Positions 5-51,008 of a stretch of DNA of 51,457 nt are shown in pieces. This DNA comes from an uncultured Candidatus Rokubacteria bacterium (GTDB lineage Bacteria; Methylomirabilota; Methylomirabilia; Rokubacteriales; DASRDR01). The position numbers and the translations under genes are program-made. How positions within the stretch are numbered: position 1 is the first letter of the stretch; each line of letters starts with the position of its first letter. The DNA lies in contig CAWDVE010000007.1 in NCBI GenBank assembly GCA_963805625.1, forward strand, positions 1-51,457, written 5' to 3'. The notes beneath the pieces were generated by a model that was not told the origin of the DNA, did not search any database, and was given only the letters and a program-made list of their open reading frames with translations.

Positions 5-221
5 GGCACCGGGCGACCTGCGCCACACCCCGGCCTTCGGCGGCCTCAGGCCTTGGGTGAACCAAGAAGCGAGGATCGGATTGGGGTCAGTGTCCGAGAA
101 TTGTCCGAGAACCTACGCCATGCCTGCCCAACCAGGCCCAAAAGAGGGCGGGCGAAGCCCGCGAAAACACTTGGTCTATATTGGTCCTGGTTGGCGTGGG
201 TCTCGCCCGCCGTCGGTCTCT
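5..221 (+). repeat. Arm family A upstream of att1
   Basis: Near-identical to 15454-15597 and similar to 37181-37396 and 40379-40500. Contains TGTCCGAGAA-T-TGTCCGAGAA at 91-111. Confidence 0.9.
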
Positions 222-266
222 TACAGTAATCAGTAGGTTGAGGTTCGATTCCTTCACGGCTCACCA
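218..266 (+). repeat. tRNA-Lys(CTT) 3'-half fragment, att1
   Basis: ctctTA-cag-TAatcagtaggttgaggttcgattccttcacggctcacca: anticodon loop, T-arm and CCA present, no 5' half. Has a 5-bp insertion and a 1-bp deletion. Confidence 0.9.
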
Positions 267-269
267 CTC

Positions 270-300
270 GGGGCGAGGGGCCCTGAACCCCTCGCGCCTT
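270..300 (+). terminator. GC hairpin after att1 (downstream family D1)
   Basis: ggggcgagggg-ccctgaa-cccctcgcgcc-tt. The same hairpin follows att3, 4, 5, 7 and 9. Confidence 0.6.
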
Positions 301-418
301 CTGCCGCATCAGTAGGTTGCCGTTGCCCATTGGGAAACCCTCGCTGGCACCCCATCCGCACCGCCGCTACAATTCCGCTATCTTCTTCCACAAACCCGAA
401 CTTCCGAAGGAGCACCCT

Positions 419-1333
419 ATGGCCAGCGTCTCCCAGCTCGGTTACGTCGGGATCGGCACCAGCGACGACAAGTCGTGGCAGGATCTCGCCACCAATATCC
501 TCGGCATGCAGGTCGTCCCCGGGGACGACAGGTCCACCTCCTATCTCCGCATGGATGAGTACCACCACCGCCTGGAGCTACGCGCCAACGGCAACGACGA
601 CCTCGAGTTCGTCGGCTGGGAGGTAGCCGATGCCACCACCCTCCAGCGTATCGCCCAGCAGCTCGAGGACGCCGGGGTGAGGGTCACCCCGGGCACCCGC
701 GACGAGGCCGACGACCGCCGCGTCATCGACCTCTTCAAGTGCGTCGACCCTAACGGGATCTCCACCGAGATCTTCTGCGGCCGGCCAGTCAACCAGCAGC
801 CCTTTCATCCGGCCCGCCCCATGAGTGGCTTCAAGACCGGCGACATGGGCCTCGGCCACATCGTGGTCTACGCGCACCGCTTAGATGACACCGTGCGCTT
901 CTACCGCGACCTCCTCGGCTTCCGGGTGTCCGATTTCACCGAGGTCCGAACGCCCGGCGGCAAGATTCGCCTTGCCTTCCTCCACTGCAACCCCCGCCAC
1001 CACTCCATCGCCATCCTCGAAGCCCCCGGTGCGCCCAAGCGCATCAACCATGTCATGTTGGAATGCAACTCACTGGACGACGTTGGCTCCGGCCGTGACC
1101 TCTGCCTGCAGCGCGGTGTCCCGATCGCCATCGACCTTGGCCGCCACATGAACGACCATATGGTCTCCTTCTACATGGCCAATCCCTCCAAATTCGCCAT
1201 CGAATATGGCTGGGGCGGCCGCACCATCGACGACACGACCTGGCAGGTCGAGCACTACACCGCCGTCGACAGCCTCTGGGGTCACCCCCAGCTCCGCGAC
1301 CTGGTCACCGGCAAGGCGCCGGGAGAGAAGTAG
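419..1333 (+). CDS. Extradiol ring-cleavage dioxygenase (BphC/HsaC-like, VOC family)
   Basis: RBS AAGGAG, start MASVSQLGYVGIG. Motifs GLGHIV, HCNPRHHS, NHVMLE, LGRHMND, IEYGWGG. Confidence 0.92.
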   Translation: MASVSQLGYVGIGTSDDKSWQDLATNILGMQVVPGDDRSTSYLRMDEYHHRLELRANGNDDLEFVGWEVADATTLQRIAQQLEDAGVRVTPGTRDEADDRRVIDLFKCVDPNGISTEIFCGRPVNQQPFHPARPMSGFKTGDMGLGHIVVYAHRLDDTVRFYRDLLGFRVSDFTEVRTPGGKIRLAFLHCNPRHHSIAILEAPGAPKRINHVMLECNSLDDVGSGRDLCLQRGVPIAIDLGRHMNDHMVSFYMANPSKFAIEYGWGGRTIDDTTWQVEHYTAVDSLWGHPQLRDLVTGKAPGEK

Positions 1334-1345
1334 ACCGTCCATCGG

Positions 1346-1544
1346 GTGAACCCATTCGCTGGGCACGGTCTCGTGGGTGAAACGAGTCGTAGGGCATATA
1401 TGGCGTCGGAGACTGGTTCCAGGCTGGTTCCAACGCACGCGAAGGCACCGTGAGGCGAGAACGGGTCGCCTCACGGCGCTTCTTTGATCTGACGTGGTGA
1501 TAGCTGCGGATGGCGTGTGGTGCGCCGCGACCGGATGGGACTCT
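1346..1544 (+). repeat. Arm family B upstream of att2
   Basis: Near-identical to 28606-28803. TGGTTCCA direct repeat at 1414 and 1425. Confidence 0.9.
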
Positions 1545-1554
1545 TAATCAGTAG

Positions 1555-1812
1555 GGCTCATCCGGGTTTTCCGTGGGTCACCCCCAGAGGTGGGGGGAGC
1601 CTCTGCGTGTTCCGGGGCCGGACAGCCGCATGGCACTCGTGGTGGGTGGCGTGGCCCCCGGCCGCTTCTGGAGCGGTCACCCAAGCCAAGGGGGCGGGGG
1701 GGTCGTCCACCGGAAGCGACCCAGGACCCCCAGTGTCTGGTGGACCGGGGTACCCCAAGTGACCGGGGTACCCCAAGTTGTAGGGGCTACCCACGGAAAA
1801 CCCGGAAGAACC
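1555..1812. mobile_element. 258-bp MITE, ISL3-like ends
   Basis: 30-bp imperfect TIRs (GGCTCATCCGGGTTTTCCGTGGGT.. / ..ACCCACGGAAAACCCGGAAGAACC, 26/30 match). 8-bp TSD ATCAGTAG at 1547-1554 and 1813-1820. No transposase. Confidence 0.88.
1743..1778. repeat. 18-bp tandem duplication inside the MITE
   Basis: GACCGGGGTACCCCAAGT x2, each with the palindrome GGGGTACCCC. Confidence 0.9.
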
Positions 1813-1854
1813 ATCAGTAGGTTGAAGGTTCGATTCCTTCGCGGCTCACCACGC

Positions 1855-1886
1855 AATCCCGGGGGTTTCCAGCCCCCGGGATTCTT
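1855..1886 (+). terminator. Hairpin after att2
   Basis: aatcccggggg-tttccag-cccccgggatt-ctt. Confidence 0.6.
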
Positions 1887-2216
1887 GTCTCAGGGTCCAG
1901 TAGCGGGATAGGAACCCACTCCAGAACCACTCCTCCGGTTGGGAAAGGCGGCGCAACATTGTGGGGGTCTGTTCCCGATGGCCCGGTTCTTGACCCGACA
2001 CGCCGACCTTGCGAGCGCAGGTGCCCGGGATAGTGCGTGTGATCACACGCATCGGCGTGCTTCCCAAGCACGGCCGCGGTGTTGCTCGATCCGGAGGACT
2101 TCGACGACATGCTGGGGAGCTGGACCCTGGGTCTTTCGGAAGGCGGTCCCTGGTGAGCCTACTCGAGGTCGGAAAGAACTTTCGCGGCCGACTGTCCCGC
2201 AATGGGCGCCGGGCTG

Positions 2217-3758
2217 TCAGGGGCCATTGCGGTGGAGGTTGAAGCGGCGGAGGTCGATCTGCGCGTTCGGGTAGGGCTTCCAGGCGAGAGACCGGCGGAG
2301 ACCGTACACGTACACCGGTTGTAGGACCGGGATCCAGGGCAGATGCTCGAGAAAGATGTCCGTCATCTCTCTGTATGCCTGGCGCCGGAATCGCTCGTCG
2401 ACGCTGACGTGGGCGGCAGCTCCAAGCTCGTCGAAGCGGTGATGGCGCCACAGGTCATGACCACCTCCGGGCCCGAGAAGGCGCCACATCAGCCCGTCGG
2501 GATCGGCGACGGTCGAGATGGGAGCCGCCCACCGGAGCCCCTTGAAGCTTCGCTCTCGGGTCTTCTGTGCGAGGACCGAGTACTCCACGATCTCCAGGTG
2601 GGCATTGATCCCGACATCGCGCCACATGCCAACGACCGCCTCGCCCATCGTCTTGTCGTTGGTCAGGTACCCCGTCGTGGATTCCAGGACCACTTCCTCG
2701 TTACGGTACCCGGCCTCGCTCAGGCGGCGGCGGGCGAGAGACGGGTCGTAAGAAAGCGGGGGCCGCGTCTCCTCGTAGAAGCTGTCCCCGCGAGGGATGG
2801 GACCGTTGGGAAGGAGTCCCCGGCCCCGCCAGAGTTCCTTGATGATGGTCGGTCGGTCGATGGCGAGCGACAGCGCCTGCTTGACCAGCGGGTTGTCGAG
2901 GGGCGGGCGCCGGGAGTTGACGCCGAGCACGTACAGCGCATCGAGCAAGATCTCTTCCACTTTAGTCGCGGGATTCCCGTCCACCCGATCGATGTGATCC
3001 GGCCCGATACCACTCGTGAGATCCACCTCGCCGCGGAGCAGTGCAGCAATGCTGAGCGCGGGCTCCGGGATCGTCCGGAAGACGACCCGTTCCGCATCGA
3101 TTGCGCCACCCCAATAGTCTGGCACTGCCGCCAGCACGAGCCGGTCGCCGGTGACGCGCTCTACGAACCGCACCGGCCCTGTCCCCACCGGCTGCGCCTC
3201 AACCCCGTCGGGGCCCACGCTTTCCACGTACCGCCTGGAAAGTATCTGCCCGCCGAGGAAGGCGAGGCGTGCTGGCAGGAGCGGGTCGGGTGCACGCATG
3301 TGGAACCGGACAAGGTAGGGGTTGGGCGTCTCGATCCGCTCCACGGTCGTAAAGGTGGATGCGACGAGCGCCTTGGCGGCGGGATCGTAGGTGCGCTCGA
3401 TGCTGTACTTGACGTCAGCAGAGGAGAATGGGTCCCCGTTGTGGAATCGAACGCCACGGCGGAGCTGGAACTCCCAGATGGTCGGTCCCACGAGCTTCCA
3501 GGTGAGCGCGAGCGACGGGTAGAGCCGGTGGTCCCGCCGCCGCGCGACGAGCGTGTCGTAGAGGACGAACAGCGCACCGAGGTCGGTGCTGTAGTGGGGA
3601 TCGAGGCGCGCGACATCGGTCCCCTGGGCGATGACGAGATCTCGGGAGCGCGCCTCCTGGGCCAGCGCCCAGGGCGCGAGCCCGCCCACGGCGCTTGCCA
3701 GTACGCCGCCGGTTTTCCGCAGGAGGGTCCGGCGCGAGAGGTCCCTGGCCCCGCTCAC
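2217..3758 (-). CDS. ABC transporter substrate-binding protein, family 5 (peptide/nickel), Tat signal
   Basis: GTG start overlaps the upstream stop. SRRTLL Tat motif, LRRGVRFHNGDPFSSADVKYS, PVGTGP. Confidence 0.88.
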   Translation of the reverse strand: MSGARDLSRRTLLRKTGGVLASAVGGLAPWALAQEARSRDLVIAQGTDVARLDPHYSTDLGALFVLYDTLVARRRDHRLYPSLALTWKLVGPTIWEFQLRRGVRFHNGDPFSSADVKYSIERTYDPAAKALVASTFTTVERIETPNPYLVRFHMRAPDPLLPARLAFLGGQILSRRYVESVGPDGVEAQPVGTGPVRFVERVTGDRLVLAAVPDYWGGAIDAERVVFRTIPEPALSIAALLRGEVDLTSGIGPDHIDRVDGNPATKVEEILLDALYVLGVNSRRPPLDNPLVKQALSLAIDRPTIIKELWRGRGLLPNGPIPRGDSFYEETRPPLSYDPSLARRRLSEAGYRNEEVVLESTTGYLTNDKTMGEAVVGMWRDVGINAHLEIVEYSVLAQKTRERSFKGLRWAAPISTVADPDGLMWRLLGPGGGHDLWRHHRFDELGAAAHVSVDERFRRQAYREMTDIFLEHLPWIPVLQPVYVYGLRRSLAWKPYPNAQIDLRRFNLHRNGP

Positions 3759-4678
3759 GGCCGCCACAGGGTCGCGCGACACTGCGCTGGGAACTGGCGC
3801 AGGTACGAATCGAGCCGGAGCGCAAGTACCTCGCGACACGCGGCCCGGTCCTCGTCCGGATCGATCAATGGTGCCGGCAGGGGCGGATGGATGGTGATGA
3901 CGCGGTGACGACCGTCCCGGTGGGCCAGCACCGGCAGCGTCGTGGCGCCAGTGTGCCGACGCAGCACGAACCACCCCGATCGGATGACAAGTGGCCCGCC
4001 GGGCAGGGGGATCCGGAATGCCGCCGCTCCGTTCGCCCCGTCGGCCGCGATGGAGAGGAGACCTTTGGCGCCAAGATGCTGCCGTGCCTGGTGGAGAGCC
4101 ACCGCCCAGTGGCTCGGCTCCCCGCTGTCGACTGGGATGGACCCGAGTGAGCTGTGGATCCGGCGCCACCCGGAACCCATCGAGAAGTCCAGCCCGACCG
4201 GGCCATGGAGTGACCTCACCGGATAGTCGAGGAGTCGTAGGGCCAGACCGGACCCCGGCGGGCCCACGTGGAAGCCCAGGAGGATCACGCCGCCCCGCTC
4301 CCACGCCCGTGCCAGATGCTCCTCCCCGATGACCTGGAGTCGGTCGCGCAGGATCTGGGGATCTCGGATTCCCACCAGCGCCTCCTGGGCTACGAACCGC
4401 CCGTGATGAGCGAGCAGGGCGAACGCGAGACCCCAGCGACCGCGACGCCCTCGAGGTTGCGCGGATGACCACTCGAGCGCACGCCGGAGGAGTGCTGGTC
4501 GGGCGAGGGCCTGAAGAACGGCCAGGCCCGCCATAACCTCCTCGCCCACCGGCCACGGCAAGGAATCTAAAGCCCGGGCCACCCAGCCTGTTAGAGCCGC
4601 GCCGCGACCTCGCCGGGTCGGCGCCCGGTCGGACCAGAGGTCGGGGACACCCTGGGCATGGACTCCAGGGGCGCTCAC
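3755..4678 (-). CDS. Lysophospholipid/lipid A-type acyltransferase (LpxL-like)
   Basis: GEEHLARAWERGGVILLGFHVG and IAADG motifs. Coupled to neighbours by GTGA overlaps. Confidence 0.7.
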   Translation of the reverse strand: MSAPGVHAQGVPDLWSDRAPTRRGRGAALTGWVARALDSLPWPVGEEVMAGLAVLQALARPALLRRALEWSSAQPRGRRGRWGLAFALLAHHGRFVAQEALVGIRDPQILRDRLQVIGEEHLARAWERGGVILLGFHVGPPGSGLALRLLDYPVRSLHGPVGLDFSMGSGWRRIHSSLGSIPVDSGEPSHWAVALHQARQHLGAKGLLSIAADGANGAAAFRIPLPGGPLVIRSGWFVLRRHTGATTLPVLAHRDGRHRVITIHPPLPAPLIDPDEDRAACREVLALRLDSYLRQFPAQCRATLWRP

Positions 4679-4938
4679 TCGCGCGGTCCAGCCCGGACGA
4701 CCGATGCAAGCGTTCCTAGGCTGGTCAAGTCCTGCGGGCCGACCCCTCGGTCGCCCTCGAGGGTCACGCCCATCTCTTCCTCGCACGCGAGCAGCACCTC
4801 CAGGAGCTCAACGGAGTCCAGCCAGAAACCTCCCTCGCCCAGCAGGGTCTCCGGGCCGATCGTGGCCGGGCGGCGGTCGGGGCCGGCCACCCGGACGACG
4901 ATCGCCCGGATACGGTCGAAGGATGGGTCGACGGTCAC
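4675..4938 (-). CDS. Acyl carrier protein
   Basis: Acidic ~87 aa protein with WLDSVELLEVLLACEEEMGV phosphopantetheine motif. GGAG RBS before GTG. Confidence 0.85.
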   Translation of the reverse strand: MTVDPSFDRIRAIVVRVAGPDRRPATIGPETLLGEGGFWLDSVELLEVLLACEEEMGVTLEGDRGVGPQDLTSLGTLASVVRAGPRE

Positions 4939-4973
4939 GATAGGAGGCTCCAGCGCGGACGCGAGGTTGCTGC

Positions 4974-6383
4974 TTATCCCAGTAGAGCCCGGCATGCGGT
5001 TCGATCGACCTTCCCGCCGGGCAGGCGCGGAAGCTCGCGAACGAAGCGAATCACCCGAGGGTAAGACCAGGGCGGAAGATGCTGCGCGACGTGCGCACGA
5101 ATGGCCTCCCCGGTCGGGTTGTCCGTAGTCTCCAAGAGCGCGGCGAGCACAGGACCGGCGGGCCCCTCGGCCGACAGCACCTCGGCCTCAACGACCGCGG
5201 GGTAGCTGGCGAGCACCGCGGCCACCTCGGCGAGGTTGACCAGATGACCGGCGCCTGTCTTGACGCAATCGTCCAATCGTCCGAGGAAGTGGAGATACCC
5301 GGCCTCGTCCAGGCGACCGAGATCGCGCGTCGGTCGCCACCCGTCGCGCTCCAGCACGGGCTCCAGGGCTGGCGGATACCCATAGCCTTCCATCGGCCAC
5401 GGGGTCCTTGCCCAGATCCGACCGCTCCGTCCGGCCGGGAGTGGCTCCCATGGATCGTCCCCGATTCGCACGTCGGCACCCGCCATGGGTCGCCCCAACG
5501 TTTCTGGTCGAACATTGGCCGCCACAGCGGCGTCGAGCGTCACTGGTCCGGTCTCCGTACTCGAGTAGCCGCCCCGGAGTGGCACGCCGAAGCGTTCCTG
5601 GAAGGCGCGGAAGACGCGCTCGGGGACCTTCAGGCTGGAACAGGCGGCTGGTGCCCTGCACACCCGTGGGGGAGCGCTGCGCACCAGCGCGTCCGCCATG
5701 ACAGCACTGCCCGACCAGTAGTGATACTCGCCGGAGGCGAAGAGTGCGAGCAGGGCGCGGTGATCAAAGCGCTCCAGGAGGCCAACGTGGCAGCCCGCAA
5801 CGGTTGCCCCCAAGAGGGCGTCGTTCAGCGCGTGTCCCCGGAAGAGTGGGAGCGCGCACGCGATGCCGCCGCCCGGTGGCACCGCGAGCGCCTCGAGCCG
5901 CGCCGACGCTGCGGCCAGGAGCTTCGGCATAGACCGGTACACCGGCTTGGGCGGACCCGTGGTGCCCGACGTGAACATCACGAGCCCGGGGCCAGTCAGG
6001 ATGGCGAGCCCGGCACTGCCCAGCCCAGCCCCGATCCTGGGCTCGGGCACGACCGCCGGTCTCAGCCCCAGGCGTTCGGCCGCCGGCGCAAGGCCCGTGA
6101 ACCAGGGCAGGAGGAAGACCAGCGTCCCGGTCGGTAGGGGGGGCGACGTGCGCCACGCCCGCTGGTCTGGCGGGAGGACGATCAGCGGAACGGGCAGGGA
6201 AGAGAGCGCGAAGAAGAGCGCCACCGCCAGGGGGTGATTCGTCATCACCACGGCGATCGCGCCCGACGGTCCACCGAGGTCGCCCAGGGCGAAATCACGC
6301 CAGCCGGCCGCGATCCCCGCCAGCTCCTCGGACGCCCACCGCCGCCCCTGGAACAGCGTCGCGGGTGGATTGAAGCTCGGCAT
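4974..6383 (-). CDS. AMP-dependent ligase (class I adenylate-forming, acyl-CoA/acyl-ACP ligase)
   Basis: MFTSGTTGPPK, GYSSTETG, TRDLG, LPRLPGGKVDR. Confidence 0.88.
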   Translation of the reverse strand: MPSFNPPATLFQGRRWASEELAGIAAGWRDFALGDLGGPSGAIAVVMTNHPLAVALFFALSSLPVPLIVLPPDQRAWRTSPPLPTGTLVFLLPWFTGLAPAAERLGLRPAVVPEPRIGAGLGSAGLAILTGPGLVMFTSGTTGPPKPVYRSMPKLLAAASARLEALAVPPGGGIACALPLFRGHALNDALLGATVAGCHVGLLERFDHRALLALFASGEYHYWSGSAVMADALVRSAPPRVCRAPAACSSLKVPERVFRAFQERFGVPLRGGYSSTETGPVTLDAAVAANVRPETLGRPMAGADVRIGDDPWEPLPAGRSGRIWARTPWPMEGYGYPPALEPVLERDGWRPTRDLGRLDEAGYLHFLGRLDDCVKTGAGHLVNLAEVAAVLASYPAVVEAEVLSAEGPAGPVLAALLETTDNPTGEAIRAHVAQHLPPWSYPRVIRFVRELPRLPGGKVDRTACRALLG

Positions 6384-6606
6384 TGAGGGCACCCTCTCTC
6401 CGTGCTCGATGCGGGTCTTTCGGGCCGAGAATCGGTCAGAACCGACATCGCGTCAAGCGGACGTCGGTCGCATGGACGAGTGGCGCAGCGTTCGATGATT
6501 CCGGCGAGCGGTCCAGCGCCTTGGGTGGATTGATCCACACTTGGGTGGGGCACGCCGGTGGCCGGGGCAGTCCGCGAGGGAAGCGCTCGGGGTGGGCCGC
6601 GTAGGC

Positions 6607-6765
6607 CGTGGCGAGCTCCTCAGCGGCGCGAAGACCGTGCCCGCGTCGGAGACGACCGTCATCAAGTCGGTGGGCCTCGCGATCAAGGACCTGGCGACGG
6701 CGCGCCTCGTGTACGACGCGGTCCTCACGCGGGGGCCACGGGCAGAACCGCCGGCCGGGGGGTGA
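6607..6765 (+). pseudogene. Ornithine cyclodeaminase/mu-crystallin C-terminal fragment
   Basis: GELLSG..TTVIKSVGLAIKDLATARLVYD matches the OCD C-terminus. No N-terminus. Confidence 0.7.
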
Positions 6766-6780
6766 CCCCTCCCCCCTAGC

Positions 6781-8388
6781 TCAGCTGTCCTCTCCGGGGC
6801 CCCGGCTCGGCCGTTCGGAGTGCAGATGCATGACCTTGCCGGAGGCGAGCGCGATCGGCGGCCGCCGCTCGACTCGCAGGAAGTCGGCGTGCTGCCAGAG
6901 GAGGCCTACGAGGCGCTCGATCCCCGAGCCGGGCCCGATCGCCTCGAGGAACACTCGGGCCGCCTCTCCGGAGCGGAGCGGTCCGACCGCGGGATGGATC
7001 AGGAGTCGAAGGCTCGGGTGGCCGTCCGACGTTTCGGACTCGACCAGCTGGTAGTCGCCCGGGCGCCCGCCGAGCCGAGCGGGTAGGACGTGCTCGAGCA
7101 CCCGGATCACGTCCGCGTCGAGAAAGGCGATGCCCCCCGCGGTCAGCTTCTCGAAGCTCCGGATCGTCTCGAGGTGGGTCGCCCAGCCGAGCGCCTCCAG
7201 GGGGCAGCCGCACCGCCGGCGGACCAGCCGGGCCTCGTCGCCCAGCGACACGTTCAGGAGGACGAACGGCGCGCTCGGGAGCAGCGAGGAGAGGAGCAGG
7301 GCGAACGGCGACAATCCGGCAGGGCCTCCGGCCGAGCTCGGCTGGATGACGGCGTGGGTGTCGTCGAGCAGGTGCACGTCGTCGGGGACCCGAGGCGCCA
7401 GGCACCCGGCGCCGAGCGGGCCGCCCATCTCCATGGCGCCGTAGCTCGTCGCCACGTCCGCCCGGACCCGGCGAATGAGCTCGAGGCGCGTTTCGGTGAC
7501 CGGCTCGCCCGAGAGCGTGAGGCGGACGCCTTCGAGGTCCGCGCCGGCGTCGAGGGCGGCATGGGAGAGCCGGGCCGCAGGACTCGGCGCCAGGAAGAGG
7601 TGCGGGGTCCCTCCGCCCCGGCGGACGTCCACCATCCACCGGACGATCTCGTGCGGTGAGTCGACCGGAACGTGCTGCATCCGAGGGAGCGGCACCCCGG
7701 CCAAGAGACCGCCCCACCGCATGGCCCGCGCGCTCCAGCGATACCGAGGATGAAGCTCCAGCGAGCCGGGATCGACGGGAGAGAACCAGCGGACCGGCAC
7801 GGCCCCGGCCGCCGCGTACCGGAGCAGCACCCGCATCGGCGTGCCACCGGGAACGGTCCACACCGCGTGACTCGCCCGCGTCCAGCCGCGGGCGTCCAGC
7901 ACCAGCCGCTGGTCGACGGCATGGTCGCGGACGGAAGCGAGATCGAGCAGGGCCACCGTCGGGGTCCCCCGGCTTCCGCCCGTGTGAACCGGGACGTGCG
8001 CGACCGTTGACGGATTCCGGAGTCGACCGGGATCGGCGGCGATGGTGGTGGTGCCCCGGGTGACCGGGCGCCGCCCCTTGAACTCGTCGACCGTGAGATA
8101 CACGCCCTTCACGAACAGGACGCGGAGCGCCTGCTCAATCCCGTCCTGGCTCACGAGCCGCTCGAGGTCACCGTATTCACAGCCTGCGAAGTCCAGCAGC
8201 TGGCGATAGGGACTCTCCGGATTGCCGTAGAGGGCCCGGCGGGCGAGGGCGAGGAAGGTGTGTTCCCGTTGCTCCAACCGGCGGCGAAGGATGACTCGAG
8301 CTTCCTGCCCGGTGACGGGCCGGCGAAGGAACGCGGGGAGGCGGAAGAAGAACCTCGACGCGACGAGGAGGTCCGGCAGTGAGCTCAC
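6781..8388 (-). CDS. Phenylacetate-CoA ligase/F390-synthetase-like protein of unknown function
   Basis: TGGSRGTP loop, SGEP, YGAME, LNVSLGD, SGK near the C-terminus. Paralog of 16191-17786. Confidence 0.7.
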   Translation of the reverse strand: MSSLPDLLVASRFFFRLPAFLRRPVTGQEARVILRRRLEQREHTFLALARRALYGNPESPYRQLLDFAGCEYGDLERLVSQDGIEQALRVLFVKGVYLTVDEFKGRRPVTRGTTTIAADPGRLRNPSTVAHVPVHTGGSRGTPTVALLDLASVRDHAVDQRLVLDARGWTRASHAVWTVPGGTPMRVLLRYAAAGAVPVRWFSPVDPGSLELHPRYRWSARAMRWGGLLAGVPLPRMQHVPVDSPHEIVRWMVDVRRGGGTPHLFLAPSPAARLSHAALDAGADLEGVRLTLSGEPVTETRLELIRRVRADVATSYGAMEMGGPLGAGCLAPRVPDDVHLLDDTHAVIQPSSAGGPAGLSPFALLLSSLLPSAPFVLLNVSLGDEARLVRRRCGCPLEALGWATHLETIRSFEKLTAGGIAFLDADVIRVLEHVLPARLGGRPGDYQLVESETSDGHPSLRLLIHPAVGPLRSGEAARVFLEAIGPGSGIERLVGLLWQHADFLRVERRPPIALASGKVMHLHSERPSRGPGEDS

Positions 8389-8588
8389 GTTGGAACCCTT
8401 CCCACGATGGTATCCCCGCGAAGGACCTACAGCGACGGTCGGTTGGCGAGCCCCGAGAGGCTCAGTGACCGGATTCGGCGTGATAGTTTAGGCGGCGATG
8501 AGATCCCGCGGGTCGTCCGCCCGCTCGCTTGCCGAACGCACGAGGGTGGGCGGACACCAGGGAGCTCTGCGAGCGTCCGACCGAGTCC

Positions 8589-9554: not shown

Positions 9555-9585
9555 CGCGCGCCCGATCCTGGCCCACGACGCGAGC

Positions 9586-9726
9586 TTGCAGCAACCGCTC
9601 GACCAGGAGGATCTTCCCGTGCTCGTTCATCGCGCTCCGACAATTGCTCAGGATCTCAAGCGCCCGTTCGTCGTTCCAATCGTGGATGATGTTCTTCAGA
9701 ATGTACTCGTCCCATCCGGACGGCAC
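9586..9726 (-). pseudogene. O-methyltransferase (Methyltransf_2) fragment
   Basis: YILKNIIHDWNDERALEILSNCRSAMNEHGKILLVE. Confidence 0.75.
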
Positions 9727-41400: not shown

Positions 41401-41558
41401 AGGCTCGAATCCCGGTGACATGCCGGTGCCAAACTCCACCGAACTCCCCCGCACCCAGCCGACCATCGGTCCGGCCGCCTCGCAGGCAATTCATGGGATT
41501 AGATCGCCTGAGTGTTTGGGAGATCGGTCCCAGAACCACCTCCCTTCACGGCTCACCA
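41401..41558 (+). repeat. Arm C plus internally deleted tRNA 3' end (att11)
   Basis: CGGTG(A/C)C repeat at 41413 and 41424. ctc|ccttcacggctcacca. Confidence 0.82.
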
Positions 41559-41559
41559 C

Positions 41560-43233: not shown

Positions 43234-43368
43234 GTCAGCGCCCCGGGTTCCGATCCTAGGCGGTCGCTAGCCCCGTTTCTCGATCCCCGCCTCCCGTGAC
43301 CCCGGCCCTCGGCCGCCGCCGGAGCCATCAGCCGGGCAGTAGCCCGCGCCGCGATGCAGGGGGCAAGC

Positions 43369-46300
43369 TTAGGCGCTTGCGAGCGACTCGAGCAGCCCCC
43401 GTGCATCCTTCAGATCGGCGGTGTCGAACCCTTCCGTGAACCAGCCGTAGACCTCTTCGATGTGCCGCCTCGCCTCGTCCCGCTTGCCCTGTTGCTGGAG
43501 GAGCCGGCCCAGGCTCGTGGCGGCCCGCAACTCGAGCGACCTCGCGCTCTGTCGTCGGGCGATCTCGAGCGCTTGGCGGAAGCACTGTTCCGCGTCGTCG
43601 GGTTTGGGGCTGGCGCTCAGGAGGAGCAGGTCCCCGCGGAGTCGAAGTAGCTCGGCTTCGTTGAAGCGGGCCGCGGTCTCCCGCGCCTGCGCCAGACCGT
43701 GGGCGACGGCCTGGAGCGCTTCGTCGATGCGACCGGCGACGCGGTACGCGTCAGCGAAGGCCGCCCAGCAATGCGGGAACTCGAGGATGGCATCGGAGTT
43801 GCGGCAGATGTCCATCCCCTGACTGATGCGGGCGAGCCCTTGCGCATGCTGTCCTTCGTGCGCCATCGCCCAGCCCTCCTCGACCATGCTGCAGCCGAGC
43901 ATGAACACGTTCGCCTGCTCGGTCGAGAGCCCGATGTTCGTCGCGGCGGCGGCCTTGGCCTCGGGAATCTCGCGGCGGAGGTGATGGATCACGCTCGCGA
44001 ACTGCATCGCGAGGCTCAGGCTGAACGCCTGCGCGAGCTCCCTCGCGAGCGCGATGCCTTCCGCGATACGCCGGGCGGCGCGATCGGGGTAGCCCAGATA
44101 CCAGAGCGCATACGCGGAGAAGATGCGGCACGCGACGCAGGGATCATAGCCCGCGTGCTGGTGGGCGAGGTCGCGGTGCTCGTCGAGGCGATAGAGCGCG
44201 ATCCCCTGCTCCAGGTGCTCCAGCGCTCGGGTGAAGTCGCCGCACCAGTAGAGCGTGTCGCCGAGGACATCGTGGGTGACCAGCCGCAGCGCGGGGTCGT
44301 CGGAGGTCTGGGCCAGTCGGAACAACTCCTCGCCGAGGCCGAGCGCGATCTTCAGCTCGCCGCGCAGCTCGTGAAATTCCCACAGGCCGCGTAGGACGGC
44401 GAAGAGCTCCGGCCGCTCGCCGAGCGCTCGGCATAGCTCGAGCGCCTGCCTATAGTTCGCGCCGACCTCGGGCGAGCCGAGCCCCTTCGTGGACATCAGG
44501 GCCGGCCCGAGCGCCGTGCGCACGGCGAGCTCGCGCTCGAACCGGTCGCGGCTCTCGGGCAACCCCGACAGGACACTCAGCGCCTTCGTGAAGTGGGCGA
44601 TGGCCTCGACATTTGCCGACCGCTCGACGGCCCGCCGCCCGGCGCGCTGCCAGTAGTCGACCGCCTGACCGGCCAGCCCGGCCTCGGTGTAGTGGTGCGC
44701 CACCAGCTCGGGCTGCGTCCCGGCGGTGTCCGGAAACCGGTCGACCAGGGTGTCACCGATGCGCTGATGGAGCTGCTGTCGGCGGCTCACCAGCATCGAC
44801 TGATACGCGGTCTCCTGGATGAGCGCGTGCTTGAAGACATAGGTCGCGTCGGGCGGCACGCCGCGCTGATGGAGCAGATCGGACTCGCCGAGCCGGGCGA
44901 GCGCGCGCCGGAGGGTGGCGTCGTCGATCGCGGCGACGGCGCGCAGCAGCTCGTAGTGAAACGTGCGCCCAAGCGCCGCGCCGATCTGGGCGACCTCCTT
45001 GATCGCGGCCAGGCGGTCGAGCCGGGCCATGAGCGAGTCCTGGAGCGTGGACGGGATCGCGAGCGGAGGCAACGCGTCAACCAACTCGTAGCGGTCGCCC
45101 CGATCGGCGAGCAGATCCGATTCGAGAACCGTGCGCGTGAGCTCCTCCACGAAGAGGGGCACGCCGTCGGTCTTCACCACGATCTGCTGGAGGACTTCGG
45201 CGGGCAAGGGCTTGCCGCCCGCCACCCCCTCGACCATCGCTTCGGTCTGCTTGCGCGTCACGCGGTTGACCGTGAGGTAGGTGAAGTGGCTGCGCGCGGT
45301 CCACGGCGGTCGAAACTCCGGACGCGACGTCATGAGCACCAGGATCGGCGACGCCGCCACTTGTCCGAAGAGGACGTCGACGAGCTCGAGGGTCGACGGG
45401 TCCGCCCAGTGCAGATCCTCGACGATGAGGAGGAGCGGCTGCTCCGCGGCGAGCGCGAGGAGAAGCGCGACGATGGCCTCGAACGTCTTCTCTTTCTGGC
45501 GCTGCGGTGTCAGATCCAGGGTCGGAACCGTGTCGGGAAGCGGCAGGGACAAGAACCCCGCCCACAGCGCGAGCGCTTCGGGCACGGCTAGGCCATACCG
45601 CGCCAGGCGCGCCTCGAGCTTCGCGAACCGCTTGGCGGGCACCTCGTCGCGATCGAACTGAAGCGCGCGCTCGAAGAGGTCGATGAAGGGATAGAGCGCG
45701 CTGTCCTGGTGGTAGGGGGAGCAGCGACACTCCCATCGGGTTGACCGCTCGGCGGCGATGCGCTCCTCCAGGACCCGCACCAGGCGCGACTTGCCGATGC
45801 CGGGCTCACCGCCGAGTAGCACCACGTGACCCCGGTCGTCCTTGACGTGATCCCAGCGGGCGAGGAGCAAGCCGACTTCTTGATCGCGTCCTACCAGCGG
45901 CGTGACGGTCACCGCGGCCGCAGCCTCGCGCGCGTGCGATGTCTGGCCGGCCGCCTCAACCCGATACACGCGCAGTGGGGCCGGCAGGCCCTTGACCACC
46001 TGCGCGCCGAGATCGGCCACCGGGACAGTCCCCCGGAGAAGGCGATGTGTCGCGGCGCTGATCACGACGGTACCGGGCTCGGCGATGGCCTGCAGGCGTG
46101 CCGCGACGTTCGGGGTCTCGCCGAGCGCCAGCGCCTCGCGCCGGCTCGTTCCGCCGATCGCGCCAACCACGACCGGACCCGTGTGGATGCCGATTCGGAC
46201 CGCGAGCGTGAGCCCCTGCTCGCGCTCGAGCCGTGCGTTCAACGGAGCGAGCGCTTCGAGAATCCCGACGGCGGCGCGAACGGCGCGGCGCGGATCATCC

Positions 46301-46749
46301 TCCCGGGCGATCGGATAGCCGAAGTACACGAGCAGACCATCGCCGAGGTACTGGGCGACGTTGCCGTGGAGCTGGCCGATCACGGTGTCACAGACCCCCT
46401 GATAGGACCGGACCACGTCGCGCAGCCGCTCGGGATCGAGCCGCGCGGCCAGCTCGGTCGAGCCGACGAGGTCGCAGAACATCACTGTGAGCTGGCGGCG
46501 TTCGGCCTCCGCGGGCGGTCTCGGCTCGTGAAGAGCCCCGGTGCTATCCGGAGCACTGGCAGGGGCGGGTGCCGGCACGGGTGGCGCGACGGGGCTTGCC
46601 TCCAGCAACGCTCCGCAACGATCGCAAAACTTGCTCCCCGCGTCGACGTTAGCGCCGCAGCTCGAACAGACGGTGGCCAGGAGTGCGCCACAGGCGCGAC
46701 AGAATCGCGCACCCTGTCGGTTCTCGTCGCGGCACCGCAAACAGATCAT
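43369..46749 (-). CDS. Zn-ribbon / adenylate-guanylate cyclase / AAA ATPase / TPR protein
   Basis: AERRQLTVMFCDLVGST, YLGDG, GEPGIGKS, EDLHWAD, WFTEGFDTADL. Confidence 0.92.
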   Translation of the reverse strand: MICLRCRDENRQGARFCRACGALLATVCSSCGANVDAGSKFCDRCGALLEASPVAPPVPAPAPASAPDSTGALHEPRPPAEAERRQLTVMFCDLVGSTELAARLDPERLRDVVRSYQGVCDTVIGQLHGNVAQYLGDGLLVYFGYPIAREDDPRRAVRAAVGILEALAPLNARLEREQGLTLAVRIGIHTGPVVVGAIGGTSRREALALGETPNVAARLQAIAEPGTVVISAATHRLLRGTVPVADLGAQVVKGLPAPLRVYRVEAAGQTSHAREAAAAVTVTPLVGRDQEVGLLLARWDHVKDDRGHVVLLGGEPGIGKSRLVRVLEERIAAERSTRWECRCSPYHQDSALYPFIDLFERALQFDRDEVPAKRFAKLEARLARYGLAVPEALALWAGFLSLPLPDTVPTLDLTPQRQKEKTFEAIVALLLALAAEQPLLLIVEDLHWADPSTLELVDVLFGQVAASPILVLMTSRPEFRPPWTARSHFTYLTVNRVTRKQTEAMVEGVAGGKPLPAEVLQQIVVKTDGVPLFVEELTRTVLESDLLADRGDRYELVDALPPLAIPSTLQDSLMARLDRLAAIKEVAQIGAALGRTFHYELLRAVAAIDDATLRRALARLGESDLLHQRGVPPDATYVFKHALIQETAYQSMLVSRRQQLHQRIGDTLVDRFPDTAGTQPELVAHHYTEAGLAGQAVDYWQRAGRRAVERSANVEAIAHFTKALSVLSGLPESRDRFERELAVRTALGPALMSTKGLGSPEVGANYRQALELCRALGERPELFAVLRGLWEFHELRGELKIALGLGEELFRLAQTSDDPALRLVTHDVLGDTLYWCGDFTRALEHLEQGIALYRLDEHRDLAHQHAGYDPCVACRIFSAYALWYLGYPDRAARRIAEGIALARELAQAFSLSLAMQFASVIHHLRREIPEAKAAAATNIGLSTEQANVFMLGCSMVEEGWAMAHEGQHAQGLARISQGMDICRNSDAILEFPHCWAAFADAYRVAGRIDEALQAVAHGLAQARETAARFNEAELLRLRGDLLLLSASPKPDDAEQCFRQALEIARRQSARSLELRAATSLGRLLQQQGKRDEARRHIEEVYGWFTEGFDTADLKDARGLLESLASA

Positions 46750-47215
46750 GCGGGAGCCTCCAGGATGAGACCGGCTGGTCGCGGCAACCGTAGCATCGCT
46801 CGGCGAAGCGGGTCAAACCCGTTTGACGAGGCGGGAGGATGTGCGAGTTCGCCGGGCGTTCAGGACCGCGGGGAGGAGCACATCAGTCCGACGCGCACTC
46901 TGACCAGACCGGGAACGAAGCTCTGATCGCCGTCCACGCATCAGATGGCGGCTGGTGCGCTAGCCACAAGCTGGTGTGGACGGCACCCGATTGCTCAGAA
47001 AGGCTTTTCTCCTTGAGGCTCCGCACGCGTCAGGGCGCGGTTGCGAGAGTCACTCGGGAACCTCAACGCTCGGGCGTAGAGAGGGCCCGCCGCCGCGCTC
47101 GCTCGGGCTGGCGGCAGTCGATGCGTGGTAGGTGGTCTGAGGCGTGAGGAGATGGTAAGAGATCTACCAAGCGCCAGTGCTACGGCGTACGGATGCGGAT
47201 GAAGAGGAGATCAGG

Positions 47216-47638
47216 ATGGCCGAAGCCAAGCTCGCCCCGAATCTTCCGGATTGGATGGTGGAGCACGCCAACCGCTATCTTTCGAGCGGCGGCACCGACG
47301 GGCACATGTACAAGATGACGCAGCCTGGTCGGCCGGAGATGACCGTGCCGTCTTTGCTGCTGACGACGACGGAGCGGAAGTCAGGAGAGAAGTTCATATT
47401 TCCGCTGTTCTATGGGGAGGTGGGCGACAGCTATTTCGTGGTCGCCTCCAAAGGCGGGGAGCCACACGTGCACCCCGGGCAGATCTGGGCCTCCGAGGAG
47501 TTTCGCGAGCAGCTCGCTCTGACTCCCTCCTTGTGGCGCACGACGCCGGTGCCCGGGCGCGGAGACGACGAGCGGTTCAACGTCAAGAAGGCGACGGAGC
47601 CGGACCTGTGGGTGCGTCTGTACCGGCTTGAATTCTGA
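47216..47638 (+). pseudogene. Chimeric ORF: F420-dependent nitroreductase (DDN) N-part fused to an unrelated C-terminus
   Basis: LLLTTTERKSG..PLFY..VVASKGG, then loses the expected HPxWYxNL motif. Confidence 0.6.
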
Positions 47639-47917
47639 AGGACACCTGTCGCTGTCTACAGATCGACCAGACTCACCGGACACGTGTGATCGAGGAGCAG
47701 TACATCGTCATCACTGATTTGCGCGGCTTCTTTGTCCTGGGCGACGCTGGCGGTGCGGGTGACGCGGAGGGGCCGCGACATCGAGGCGAGCGGCGGCTTC
47801 TTCATCGTGAGATCAGCCTACGGGTGGTCGTAGTGACATGTCAACCTCGTTGCCGAAGACCGTCCCGCCGTGGCTTCCGGACCCTGGCGCCCGTGCCCTT
47901 GCTTTTGATAGTACTAC

Positions 47918-47937
47918 TGTACTAGTATACAAGTACA
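47918..47937. promoter_or_regulatory. Operator-like palindrome
   Basis: TGTACT-N8-AGTACA in a rare AT-rich patch. Confidence 0.4.
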
Positions 47938-48131
47938 CTAACGAATGACCGGCTGGTTGGCGGTTCGTCCTGAGAAGCCATGGGCACCACTCACCCAGTC
48001 ATCAACCGGTGATGGGGAGACCATCTCGTCATCCAACAACCATTGCCGCTCGGAGGCCGCCAATGAGTCCAATGAGTACACAGCCGTTCGTCGTTGTGCC
48101 GAAGAGCTATCGGCATCCGCTGAATGTCGTC

Positions 48132-49022
48132 ATGGCACGGTGGACGTCCCGTTCGGTTATTACGCTGGTGGCGATGCTCCAGATCGGTTGCGCCTCGCTC
48201 GACCGAAGCGCTGGCGCACCCGCCGCCCGACTGCTGGGAGGGGAGACGGAGCTCGGCAAGGGGACCGTGTCAACCTATGCCGAGCGGAATCCCCGGGGTG
48301 AGCCCACGGCGATCGGTGTGGTGTTCTCGGCCACCGCACTGGACGGGTTGCCCCCGGGCGGCTCCGACTTTCATCACTGCGTCGACCGGAACAAGGACGG
48401 GATCGTCGATCGCATGACCGAGTGCATCCAGACCTACGAATATGTCATTCCCTTGCCGGACGCGGTTGCCCGACGGGGGGACATCCCGTTCAAGTGGGTG
48501 CTCCTGAACTGGAACCCGGCCGGCCACATCCCTCCAGGGATCTACGACGTCCCCCACTTCGATATCCATTTCTACATGGAGCCGATTGCGAATGTCTTTG
48601 CGATCGAGTCGGGTCCCTGTGGCCCCGAGTTCATTCGCTGCGACCAGTTCGAGGTGGCCAGGCGGCCACTGCCGGCCAACTATATGCATCCCGACTTCAA
48701 GGACGTGGAAGCCGCGGTGCCGGCGATGGGCAACCACCTCATGGACCTGACGTCACCCGAGTTCAACAAGCAGCCGTTCACACGCACATGGATCTTTGGC
48801 GTGTACGACGGCACGGTCACCTTCTACGAAGAGATGGTGACGCGGGCGTTCCTCATGAGCAAGCCCAACACGTGTTTCCCGATCAAGTCACCGCCGGCGG
48901 TCGCGCGGAGCGGCTTCTACCCGACGCAATCCTGCCTCCGACACGATGCGCGGACCGGGGAGTATGCCGTTTCGATGGAGACATTCGTCTTCCGGGAGGC
49001 GCAGCGGCTGGCAACACCGTAG
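48132..49022 (+). CDS. Putative lipoprotein, DUF5602-like
   Basis: Lipobox-like IGC, LNWNPAGHIPPGIYDVPHFDIHFY, VPAMGNH, TFYEEMVT. Confidence 0.7.
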   Translation: MARWTSRSVITLVAMLQIGCASLDRSAGAPAARLLGGETELGKGTVSTYAERNPRGEPTAIGVVFSATALDGLPPGGSDFHHCVDRNKDGIVDRMTECIQTYEYVIPLPDAVARRGDIPFKWVLLNWNPAGHIPPGIYDVPHFDIHFYMEPIANVFAIESGPCGPEFIRCDQFEVARRPLPANYMHPDFKDVEAAVPAMGNHLMDLTSPEFNKQPFTRTWIFGVYDGTVTFYEEMVTRAFLMSKPNTCFPIKSPPAVARSGFYPTQSCLRHDARTGEYAVSMETFVFREAQRLATP

Positions 49023-49224
49023 CCGCTCTGACCCGGAGGGCTGACGAGGCCTCCAGACTGGACGTCCACGCTCAAGTACCACGGTCGCCGCCAGGGGGGC
49101 GAAACTTAGGCCATATCGGAAGCCGGCACTTGAGCACCCAGTTGGCACCGACTACCACCAGTTGGATGCTGTCGAGTCAACCCGAGAACGTGGATTAACG
49201 AACGTGAACATGAGGAGGCACACC

Positions 49225-50169
49225 ATGGCCGACAGGAAAGTCATTGCGGTGGTAGGCGCGACAGGCGCCCAGGGAGGCGGCCTGGTCCGCGCCATTCTCG
49301 CCGACCCGAATGGCGGCTTCGCCTGCAGAGCCGTCACCCGTGATCCGAGCAAAGATCAGGCAAGAGCCCTCGCGGCCAAGGGTGTAGAAGTCGTGAAGGC
49401 CGATCTCGACGACGTGGAGAGCCTCAAGAAGGCGTTCGCGGGCGCTTACGGCGCCTACTGTGTTACCAACTTCTGGGAGCACTTCTCCGGAGAGAAGGAG
49501 AAGACTCAGGCCAAGAATATGGCTGAGGCGGCGGGGATGGCCGGGCTCACGCATGTGATCTGGTCGACGCTCGAAGACACGCGGAAGCTGATGGGTCCGA
49601 GCGATACGCGGATGCCGATGCTTCAGGAGAAATACCGCGTTCCGCACTTTGACGCCAAGGCTGAAGCGAATGCCTATTTTGCAGGCCTCCCCGTCACGTA
49701 CCTGGTGGCGTCGTTCTACTGGGACAACCTGTACGCGTTCGGCCTGGGCCCCAAGAAGGGGGATGACAGTGTGTACAGCTGGGCGTTCCCGATGGGCAAC
49801 AAGCGGCTGGCCGGCATCGCCGCTGAGGACATCGGTAAGGTCGCCTACGGCATCTTCAAGGCCGGGCCGCAGTACATCGGCAAGACCGTCGGCATCGTCG
49901 GCGAAAACCTGACCCTCAATCAGATGAGCGAGAAGCTTTCGACGGGCCTCGGCATCGTTGTCAAGTACCACGCCGTCGAGGCGGACGTCTATCGCGGCCT
50001 CGGCTTCCCCGGCGCCGATGAGATGGGCAACATGTTCCAGGTCTATCGCGACTTCGAGAAGGAGGTCCTCGGTGCGCGAAGCCTCGACGTCACGCGATCG
50101 CTCGATCCGTCGGTGCAGACCTTCGATCAGTGGCTCGCCAAGAACAGGAGCAAGATGCCTCTGGCGTAG
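49225..50169 (+). CDS. NmrA/HSCARG family NAD(P)-binding protein
   Basis: RBS GAGGAGG, VVGATGAQGGG, VPHFDAK. Confidence 0.92.
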   Translation: MADRKVIAVVGATGAQGGGLVRAILADPNGGFACRAVTRDPSKDQARALAAKGVEVVKADLDDVESLKKAFAGAYGAYCVTNFWEHFSGEKEKTQAKNMAEAAGMAGLTHVIWSTLEDTRKLMGPSDTRMPMLQEKYRVPHFDAKAEANAYFAGLPVTYLVASFYWDNLYAFGLGPKKGDDSVYSWAFPMGNKRLAGIAAEDIGKVAYGIFKAGPQYIGKTVGIVGENLTLNQMSEKLSTGLGIVVKYHAVEADVYRGLGFPGADEMGNMFQVYRDFEKEVLGARSLDVTRSLDPSVQTFDQWLAKNRSKMPLA

Positions 50170-50186
50170 GTGAAGGCGGGGCGCTG

Positions 50187-50450
50187 GAAAGGCGGGTCAG
50201 GCGCCCCGCCCGGGCGATGAGAAGAAACCGCAGGGTGCGCAGGCTGCGGATCACGTAGGCATACGTCCGTTTCCGGGACCGCGGCTTCGGCTCCGCCAGG
50301 GTGTCCAGCTGGAAGCTCCGGATCAGGTTGTGGGCGAGGATGCCGAGTTGCTGCCAGATGCTGTTGGCGGCGTAGTGCTTCGTGGGCACGACGTCGAGCG
50401 CGTACTCCCCTTTGAGTTCGCGATGGTCTTCTCCTGGGCCCCGGCCGCAG
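50187..50450 (-). mobile_element. IS1380-family transposase fragment
   Basis: DVVPTKHYAANSIWQQLGILAHNL, paralogous to 51027-51457. Confidence 0.75.
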
Positions 50451-50456
50451 CTGTCT

Positions 50457-50467
50457 GCGGCTCACCA
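50457..50467 (+). repeat. att12 remnant (tRNA acceptor 3' end)
   Basis: gcggctcacca followed by a GC hairpin at 50493-50515. Confidence 0.55.
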
Positions 50468-50536
50468 CCAAATCCACGTGGTTACTGTAAGTGGCGGCTC
50501 CGGGGCCGCCCCCGCCTTCCTGGTCCGAGTTCGTGG

Positions 50537-50674
50537 TCAGGGACGGGCTAGGCTCGGCAACGGGACCACGGTGGGGCCCGGGGCCTGCTGACCGACACAG
50601 TCCGCGTGCCGGATGGCGGCTTGGCGAAGGTCGCCCGCGTTGATGATGTGGTACCGGTCGAAGACGGAGCGGTC
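50537..50674 (-). pseudogene. Tyrosine integrase C-terminal remnant
   Basis: Translates DRSVFDRYHIINAGDLRQAAIRHADCVGQQAPGPTVVPL, matching the catalytic-Tyr box of phage-type integrases. Confidence 0.7.
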
Positions 50675-50872
50675 TAAACCATTGTGTTGTTAGCGGCACA
50701 CCTGACAGATTCAGCAGCCTCTAGAACCCGCTGCGAACTTTGAAGGCGATGAGTCTCTTGATGCTGGACCGGGAGATATGCCGGGCCGCTCGATCATATG
50801 GTTGCCTGAGCAACAGGTTCAACGATTCTCGGGCGATGGATCTAACGAGCCTGGCCATCCCTTTCCGCGGAG

Positions 50873-51008
50873 CGGTTCCAGGACGGTTCCAACTCACGTG
50901 AATGCTTGATGTGGTATACGAGGGACCGTTCAAGGCGCACCCCCGGTTTCACGGGTGGATGAGGGCTGGTGACCGGCGGCGCGCGGTGGACCTCGACGGG
51001 ACTCTTAA
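50873..51008 (+). repeat. Arm B' plus start of the att13 core
   Basis: CGGTTCCA repeat at 50873 and 50884. gggactcttaa, then the IS end. Confidence 0.8.

Follow-up and report, generated by a model that had tools for sequence, protein, structure and literature searches.

The window analysed here is the entire 51,457-nt contig C7 of G000, a 7.27-Mb genome (28 contigs, ~69% GC) of an uncultured Candidatus Rokubacteria bacterium. We find that this window is the middle of a ~100-kb stack of integrase-less cargo units behind a tRNA-Lys(CTT) gene, and that the array is real and a genus-level feature. We judge it slightly better than even that these units, which carry a ~130-bp arm and a copy of the tRNA 3′ half, have been moved in cis by visiting integrase-bearing elements of several families and have then decayed.

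An earlier note on this DNA, made from the sequence alone, listed 13 sites with same-strand tRNA-Lys(CTT) sequence, and all 13 carry it on the + strand. The 37-nt core is matched eight times in the window at ≤3 mismatches, compared with 0.00 matches in 100 shuffles; the copy at 218, which departs from this core by a 1-nt gap, was recovered by BLAST. As the note had it, the fuller copies generally start at the anticodon loop and run into a hairpin, except that the copy at 1541 is split and the copy at 35880 is cut on its left. Inserted DNA of 258 bp, which has terminal inverted repeats, is flanked by an 8-bp target duplication and is present once in the genome, interrupts the split copy, whose tRNA sequence resumes at 1813-1851. 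Four copies (218, 21050, 22616 and 28800) contain 4-5 extra bases within the anticodon loop, which would jam the crossover region, and those at 37393 and 37965 have one loop substitution each. The window copy of the array is thus largely jammed. The loop insertion of core 28800 is absent from a contig of run X5, which represents another strain.

The loops show some further regularities. Among the insertions (218-231, 21050-21063, 22616-22628 and 28800-28813, with another on G000 C2 at ~7097-7105), three have the form TA-nnn-TA. We considered excision footprints of IS630 elements and rejected them, as the ends of the three G000 IS630 types do not match. The loop TTAA often becomes TCAA or TTGA in many independent copies (G000, G003, G008, G009, G012 and G014), far above other loop changes.

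Across genomes, each junction starts with an arm and continues through the anticodon loop and the tRNA 3′ half to a hairpin. The arms form at least five families, and the paired 7-10-bp repeat differs from one family to the next. We counted 76 non-tRNA junctions in nine genomes, with four artefact or edge rows and one contig-edge row left out and the split copy merged. A typed arm is present in 66 of these 76, and a paired repeat precedes the core in 55; irrespective of arm family, this repeat lies between -125 and -132 relative to tRNA base 33 in 50 junctions. After the core, a typed hairpin follows in 68 of 77 cases and a paired repeat in 14 of 77 (a stray piece of right arm accounts for one of these 14), under a repeat pattern somewhat stricter than the pre-core one that misses a few degenerate cases. 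Per unit, the core and right arm are mostly kept, while the left arm repeat is seldom kept and many loops are damaged. In the aligned arms (25 of family A and 15 of family B), differences amount to 8% within the repeats, compared with 19% for the remaining arm sequence and 51% immediately outside; conservation falls sharply, from ~90% to 50%, within a few bases beyond the arm repeat.

In att sites of tyrosine integrases, arm-binding sites flank the core, and lambda-type excision needs the left arm. Given this anatomy and their position, the paired repeats are putative integrase arm-binding sites, and several other tRNAs of G000 adjoin intact integrase genes that have similar repeat pairs at their ends. 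The sites bear out the earlier description of P-O-P′ hybrid att junctions at the anticodon loop, with P-arm, core and hairpin in that order. No resident integrase was found beside family B or C arm repeats in G000, and an isolated family B-like repeat at C10:604559 likewise stands without one. A tRNA-Arg(TCG) 3′ fragment directly precedes some family A arms (the G003 junction near C10:468.7 kb, and G008 C3, C4 and C98), so material moves between the neighbouring Arg and Lys stacks.

The setting of the array is clearest in relatives. ARAGORN and Rfam find no tRNA gene in the window, and the intact tRNA-Lys(CTT) of G000 lies on a different contig, at C12:5135-5210, 5 kb from the contig end; four further tRNA-Lys copies lie on C2 and four on C20. 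The terminus of C20 holds a gluconolactonase-like gene, tRNA-Leu(TAG) and tig-clpP-clpX (genes named from translations), and the same far flank, on the tig-clpX side, is found in G001, G003, G004 and G009. The array of G000 spans at least ~93 kb over contigs whose order is not established in the assembly, between the same conserved flanks as in these four relatives. A single contig holds both the tRNA and the complete array in G003, and likewise in G009, with 16 and 13 junctions over ~118 and ~90 kb, respectively. An intact tRNA-Lys(CTT) colinear with the array, on which the idea of a tRNA-anchored array depended, is therefore present in these two genomes, as it is in G008. Among 14 same-genus genomes, G003, G008 and G009 gave 12, 18 and 13 pattern matches, eight gave 1-2 and three gave none; the low-count genomes are mostly fragmented or incomplete, the exception being G004 (~30 contigs), with two matches. 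An order-wide pattern search found more than 2 copies in 4 genus members only, and is uninformative on other genera because most of these have a different tRNA sequence and fragmented assemblies.

Had the array been a fixed inheritance, its units would be alike in relatives. Unit content and order instead differ, and only 11-18% of each of three arrays is shared with other genomes at ≥88%. The 65 units delimited have a median length of 3.8 kb, and two window units recur elsewhere as core-bounded modules. The unit at 21059-22664 recurs in G003 at 95.8%, and that at 22623-28849 in G008 at 93%, each with different neighbours and with homology ending at the cores; identity in the tig-clpX region, for comparison, is 88% (G003) and 90% (G008). 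In both cases, the outer neighbours are of other arm and hairpin families at both ends. The first unit lacks an integrase and a left arm repeat in both genomes, which indicates that it was repositioned after losing both. By Pfam (60 window open reading frames, ORFs), the window cargo is similar to that of the G003 and G009 arrays, with several genes split or truncated.

The earlier note was also correct that no unit holds an intact integrase: there is none among the 60 window ORFs, nor in a six-frame PF00589 search of C7. Two integrase scraps were detected in the window, a C-terminus at 50540-50689 and a weaker one at 23633-23854. Integrase C-terminal stubs oriented at the tRNA end occur in the window and on C20, and in G002, G003, G008 and G009, and from these stubs the units descend from ordinary integrative elements. 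In the whole arrays, PF00589 is absent from G003 and is represented in G009 by one C-terminal fragment, with no intact protein. Pfam assignments for 120 of the 133 array proteins of G003 and G009 (13 edge proteins being out, and the farthest 10-20 kb of each array outside the scan) are to transporters, oxidoreductases and regulators, plus one HerA_C fragment; none of those 120 belongs to an integrase, primase, relaxase or phage family.

An intact integrase does occur at the tRNA itself. Of 95 metagenome matches, 15 show the lineage's tRNA-Arg(CCG)-tRNA-Lys layout; three of these loci have an integrase behind the hairpin, which is an open frame in one (L078), and six are too short to tell. L078 carries an open 395-aa tyrosine integrase, with the hairpin and family A GGTGAC repeats directly behind tRNA-Lys(CTT). 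Relatives of this integrase adjoin tRNA-Lys in G020 and G021, and its closest named relative (79%), in a Ca. Rokubacteria record, adjoins a piece of the tRNA-Lys core. Broken integrases stand behind tRNA-Lys(CTT) in L065, L066 and L036. As for a resident helper, no intact family A integrase and no close full-length match to the C or D stubs or to the G020 protein was found in G000. No phage helper was identified either, as relatives of the L078 integrase in viral contigs reach only 22-26%, plus one short 43% stretch. At other tRNAs of G000, intact elements comprise an integrase, HTH_17 excisionase-like genes and a primase or helicase, and by analogy the visiting elements may be like phage-inducible chromosomal islands (PICIs) or tycheposons. 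Intact-looking integrase/excisionase-like/primase-helicase elements of PICI or tycheposon type lie at G000 C13:35-12093 and C21:8063-14146, and a phage contig (L021:1668-3100) has an intact integrase beside the same tRNA-Lys core with a different arm repeat family.

We propose the following route, which starts from what is directly seen in junction anatomy, integrase stubs, whole arrays free of intact integrase, unit recurrence and the L078 integrase at its tRNA. An autonomous element would integrate in the anticodon loop ahead of the stack. Its left arm and integrase would then be lost to deletions from just past the tRNA terminator, which would leave the hairpin and the tRNA end in place because the front unit supplies both to the sole tRNA-Lys(CTT). 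A later visitor would excise by pairing its own left arm with the right arm of a passenger, carrying one or more units to another cell, where it would integrate and later leave alone, the passenger requiring its right arm only. Once the visitor has left, the passenger's tRNA half and terminator would have to function, and the resident junctions would then decay. Because such a composite would excise through the visitor's left and the passenger's right arm, the passenger's own left arm and integrase would be dispensable. Cis-mobilization would thus account for one-sided arm retention and tolerate unmatched unit ends.

A number of our results weigh against this proposal. Only two whole shared units involve the window. 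Undamaged loops are found in one of nine window cores (15594 alone), the other eight being damaged in or at the loop. Just one of the 15 tRNA-proximal lineage-type loci, including the six too short to tell, has an intact integrase, and the L078 element is visible for 1.6 kb only, as its contig ends after the integrase; none of families B, C and E yielded a full integrase. Private changes are as frequent in the arm repeats (23/640) as in the rest of the arm (191/4255; p=0.35, family C unscored), and resident arms therefore show no sign of ongoing selection. Junctions farther from the tRNA are only weakly more decayed (p=0.03, 0.12 and 0.35), with significance in one of three arrays. ComEC is intact in all five genomes, so RecA crossing in 45-bp cores could also shuffle units. 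No excised circle or composite was seen, and there was no core-to-core joint among the 15 joints listed, in a comparison that used contigs only, with the small-share runs X13-X21 excluded, and that leaves circles possible.

Several of these points are what one would expect of dead fossils: units that arrived once with their own integrase and decayed, with RecA crossovers in the 45-200-bp junction repeats reshuffling transformed DNA. This explanation is the strongest competitor, and we consider it unlikely but by no means negligible. It fits the many split or truncated cargo genes, the damaged loops, the lack of extra constraint on resident arm repeats and the lack of within-genome enrichment of matching ends, and the ComEC open frame in 5/5 genomes is accompanied by PF02534 (VirD4-type coupling protein) in 0/5. 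However, all four crossovers of the two shared window units fall within the 45-bp core, since the outer neighbours differ in arm and hairpin family at both ends; this is the shortest homology on offer to RecA. In addition, the sharp conservation edge at the arm repeat is more simply explained by a repeated need of the arm.

A second alternative is that each unit is a true cassette, able to excise and insert on its own, with the integrase supplied in trans from a visiting element or a resident gene elsewhere. With three duplicate units dropped, 19 of 42 typed units do have matching end families (A-A 12, B-B 3, D-D 3 and C-C 1; p=0.03 when pooled), including a 2.6-kb tRNA-proximal unit of G002 with both family C arms and an integrase stub only. 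Yet the matching is not enriched within genomes (17.4 expected, p=0.31), and the idea that every unit is an intact two-ended cassette was dropped for this reason. Moreover, the left arm repeat that lambda-type excision requires by textbook account is kept in few units, and neither an intact family A or close full-length C/D integrase nor any integrase beside family B and C arm repeats was found in G000. We therefore hold single cassettes to be improbable. The earlier suggestion of a recombinase supplied in trans gives way to cis supply by a visiting element, which fits one-sided arm retention better. The broader suggestion of an integron-like platform run by one recombinase is likewise unsupported, given at least five arm families, stubs from ordinary integrative elements, no intact copy found in G000 of the integrases identified at this tRNA and mostly damaged cores in the window. 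A third alternative, that repeats fused unrelated pieces of several strains during assembly, draws on the metagenomic origin of the genome, its 6% contamination estimate and contigs that break at cores and insertion sequences, but is very hard to maintain: G003 and G009 each show the same architecture between the same conserved flanks on one contig, a contig of 588 bp from run X1 (which may be the source sample) spans junction 5 without difference, and the arm spacing is fixed in nine genomes.

Returning to cis-mobilization, the units are, by a narrow preponderance in our estimate, passengers resembling cis-mobilizable elements (CIMEs), and the array a deep, multi-family, one-armed variant of CIME accretion, neither a new class nor an integron. 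As far as the accessible text of the reports goes, CIMEs have lost integration and transfer genes, keep their att sites and move in cis, and those of the Streptococcus ICESt3 family are decayed 1-13 kb elements moved, likewise, with an adjacent element (PMC5704250, PMC7563491). In the same text, the Streptococcus agalactiae target is tRNA-Lys CTT, the same isoacceptor as here, and tandems comprise 2-3 elements with integrative and conjugative (ICE) or integrative and mobilizable (IME) helpers present and a conjugation route (PMC5704250, PMC7563491). Unlike these, the array here has 13-19 junctions, at least five arm families and usually no helper, and keeps only the right-hand arm. Neither the window nor the whole G003 and G009 arrays contain functional integrase or transfer genes, as for CIMEs; with regard to an ICE/IME origin, the stubs indicate integrative-element descent and PF02534, as noted, is missing from the five genomes. 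From the arm asymmetry and shared units in these sequences, we infer composite mobilization with an adjacent active element.

Closest in scale are the ssrA islands of Dehalococcoides, where the text consulted reports more than 12 target repeats in 100 kb, in tandem and with strain-specific metabolic cargo, 15 islands without an integration module that were suggested to be CIMEs, and a conserved motif upstream of each repeat, as here (PMC3146451). There, a serine recombinase module of one family acts at tmRNA and is present in 16 islands, according to the same text (PMC3146451). By contrast, the array here involves tyrosine integrases of several families at the anticodon loop, none of them intact in whole arrays. 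In tycheposon islands of Prochlorococcus, the accessible part of the preprint describes transient tRNA-specific tyrosine-integrase elements that visit the proximal end and leave cargo, partial tRNAs and integrase fragments, most islands being without an intact element, as here; leftovers are ascribed to imprecise excision and have no clear boundaries (bioRxiv 10.1101/2020.12.28.424599). Unlike those leftovers, nearly every unit here ends in a defined arm and core. The label tycheposon-like given earlier therefore suits island growth by transient tRNA-proximal elements, as an intact integrase stands behind the tRNA in L078 and G020 and a broken one or none in others; it does not suit the units themselves, as none of those in the window, G003 or G009 carries an intact integrase of its own flanked by partial tRNA repeats.

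Additive flexible genomic islands of Alteromonas occupy fixed tRNA hotspots and hold partial-tRNA-marked cassettes that are near-identical across species in different order; only some cassettes are marked, and the text available describes no arm anatomy or mechanism (PMC4898812). The arrays here likewise have a fixed location, differing cassette sets and shared cassettes in altered order. They also resemble an integron or a cluster of attC sites lacking an integron integrase (CALIN) as a stack of exchangeable modules, the newest likely at one end. Unlike an integron, they have no intI, no tyrosine recombinase either heading the whole arrays or within them, phage-type arm-core-hairpin junctions on the tRNA 3′ half in place of attC (judged without an attC model), and multi-gene units in both orientations with their own promoters. 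What is novel relative to CIMEs, Dehalococcoides ssrA islands and tycheposon islands is the depth, the several families and the one-armed anatomy. We found no published description of such arrays in Rokubacteria in a search mostly of open-access literature.

More tentatively, and with somewhat more doubt than confidence, we suggest a one-armed cassette system in which Rokubacteria-type cells maintain deep, integrase-free libraries of metabolic cassettes at tRNA genes. Every cassette would be reduced to a minimal ~130-bp right arm, and any visitor of the matching family would ferry blocks of them between species by contributing its integrase and left arm. If so, several transient integrase families would together operate an integron-like gene bank on a single anticodon loop, and this could be a cause of the cell-to-cell variation in gene content that Rokubacteria show, reported as unexplained in the portion of the study available (PMC5712423). 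The arrays offer a concrete route by which an abundant, uncultured lineage of soils and sediments may exchange genes, and they extend CIME accretion from 2-3 elements to 13-19 junctions from at least five integrase families that share one geometry. Cis-mobilization predicts that a passenger needs one arm only. Because such arrays carry no integrase, island finders anchored on integrases would likely miss them; copy counts, for their part, are 0-2 in fragmented assemblies vs 12-19 in contiguous ones.

Within the window, all junctions lie on the + strand. Junction 1 (92-300) has a family C arm (paired GTCCGAG repeat at 92-110), a core at 218-266 with a 5-nt loop insertion and a hairpin, and is followed by a single-gene unit encoding an extradiol dioxygenase (419-1333, +; Pfam Glyoxalase/BphC_D1). 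Junction 2 begins at 1415-1554 with a family B arm (paired GGTTCCA repeat at 1415-1432) and core up to tRNA nt 45, is split by the 258-bp insertion at 1555-1812, and ends at 1813-1882 with the remaining tRNA 3′ half and hairpin. A ~14-kb unit (1883-15467) with a solute-binding protein, an acyl-CoA ligase, methyltransferases and an AAA/TPR adenylate cyclase leads to junction 3 (15468-15752), which has a family C arm, the undamaged core (15594-15638), a hairpin and a downstream paired GGTTCCA repeat (15733-15752). Behind it, the unit at 15753-20923 contains an NMT1-type ABC transporter (17898-20769) and an ORF without assignment. Junction 4 (20924-21132) has a family A arm (paired GGTGAC repeat), a core at 21050-21099 with a 5-nt loop insertion and a hairpin. 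The shared unit at 21059-22664 (+) encodes a luciferase-like monooxygenase, its gene split in the window, and junction 5 (22490-22782) has a family B arm, a core at 22616-22664 with a TTAA duplication, a hairpin and a downstream paired repeat. The other shared unit (22623-28849) holds PAP2, epimerase and aminotransferase genes and the weaker integrase-like scrap, and has at its end a 3′ fragment of the dioxygenase gene of unit 1; junction 6 (28674-28882) has a family B arm, a core at 28800-28849 with a 5-nt loop insertion and a hairpin.

A branched-chain-type ABC transporter unit (29199-33841, -) has lost its right arm, and junction 7 is a remnant of the final 8-9 nt of the tRNA plus hairpin (34015-34050). 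Pieces of an AMP-binding enzyme (34114-35879, -) continue as coding sequence directly into the core of junction 8 (35880-35950; core cut on the left, hairpin), the arm being deleted. Two additional arms stand without a core, a family A fragment at 36652-36712 (+) and a family C arm at 40380-40500 (+). Junction 9 (37269-37470) has a family C arm, a core at 37393-37437 and a hairpin; it precedes a 570-bp unit whose sole content is a TOBE-domain gene fragment (37555-37851, -), closed by junction 10 (37926-38035) with a short family B arm remnant, a core at 37963-38007 and a hairpin. The CoA-transferase fragment that follows is also found in G004, G009 and contig C20. In junction 11 (41414-41600), a family A arm is fused to the final 16 nt of the tRNA and a hairpin, and the ~9-kb unit at 41560-50169 encodes an AMP-binding enzyme, an adenylate cyclase, an F420 quinone reductase-like protein and NmrA. 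Junction 12 is a remnant (50457-50535) of tRNA end, hairpin and one GTCCGAG repeat, cut on its left side by a DDE_Tnp_1_4 transposase piece and followed by the tyrosine integrase C-terminal stub (50540-50689, -), which is oriented at the tRNA end. Junction 13 (50874-51008), a family B arm with the anticodon loop, is cut by a DDE_Tnp_1_4 insertion sequence (IS) that reaches the contig end.

Other observations concern the window and its genus. A core-like motif, CATCAG, follows the hairpin directly at cargo boundaries (window 300-320 and 34055-34078, and similarly in G003, G008, L048 and L080) and in the window extends as tRNA sequence for 12 nt; it is a possible secondary recombination site. 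Two related 530-aa ORFs without Pfam match lie in separate units (6781-8388 and 16191-17786), with 67-70% DNA identity in parts. A 32-kb unit of G003 (C10, ~491-524 kb) is given over to the uptake of zinc, nickel and copper (ZnuA, ZrgA, NicO, CopC and Fur). In G000, C12:2683-4654, just behind tRNA-Lys, holds a DDE transposase and a tRNA-Leu(CAG) 3′ copy, and the N-terminus of that transposase also lies near the far end of C12, behind tRNA-Leu(CAG), which suggests an IS-mediated inversion or mis-join that separated tRNA-Lys from the array. The 3′ half of tRNA-Glu(CTC) occurs as 18 scattered pieces on 11 G000 contigs, forming no single array, and may be a separate repeat element. G000 also has similar stacks at tRNA-Gly(CCC), with 4 copies and no PF00589 match, and at tRNA-Arg(TCT), with 6 copies and an integrase adjoining the tRNA; these stacks (C10:1711242-1792736, C12:122799-159611 and C17:8721-27863) have paired arm repeats of their own.

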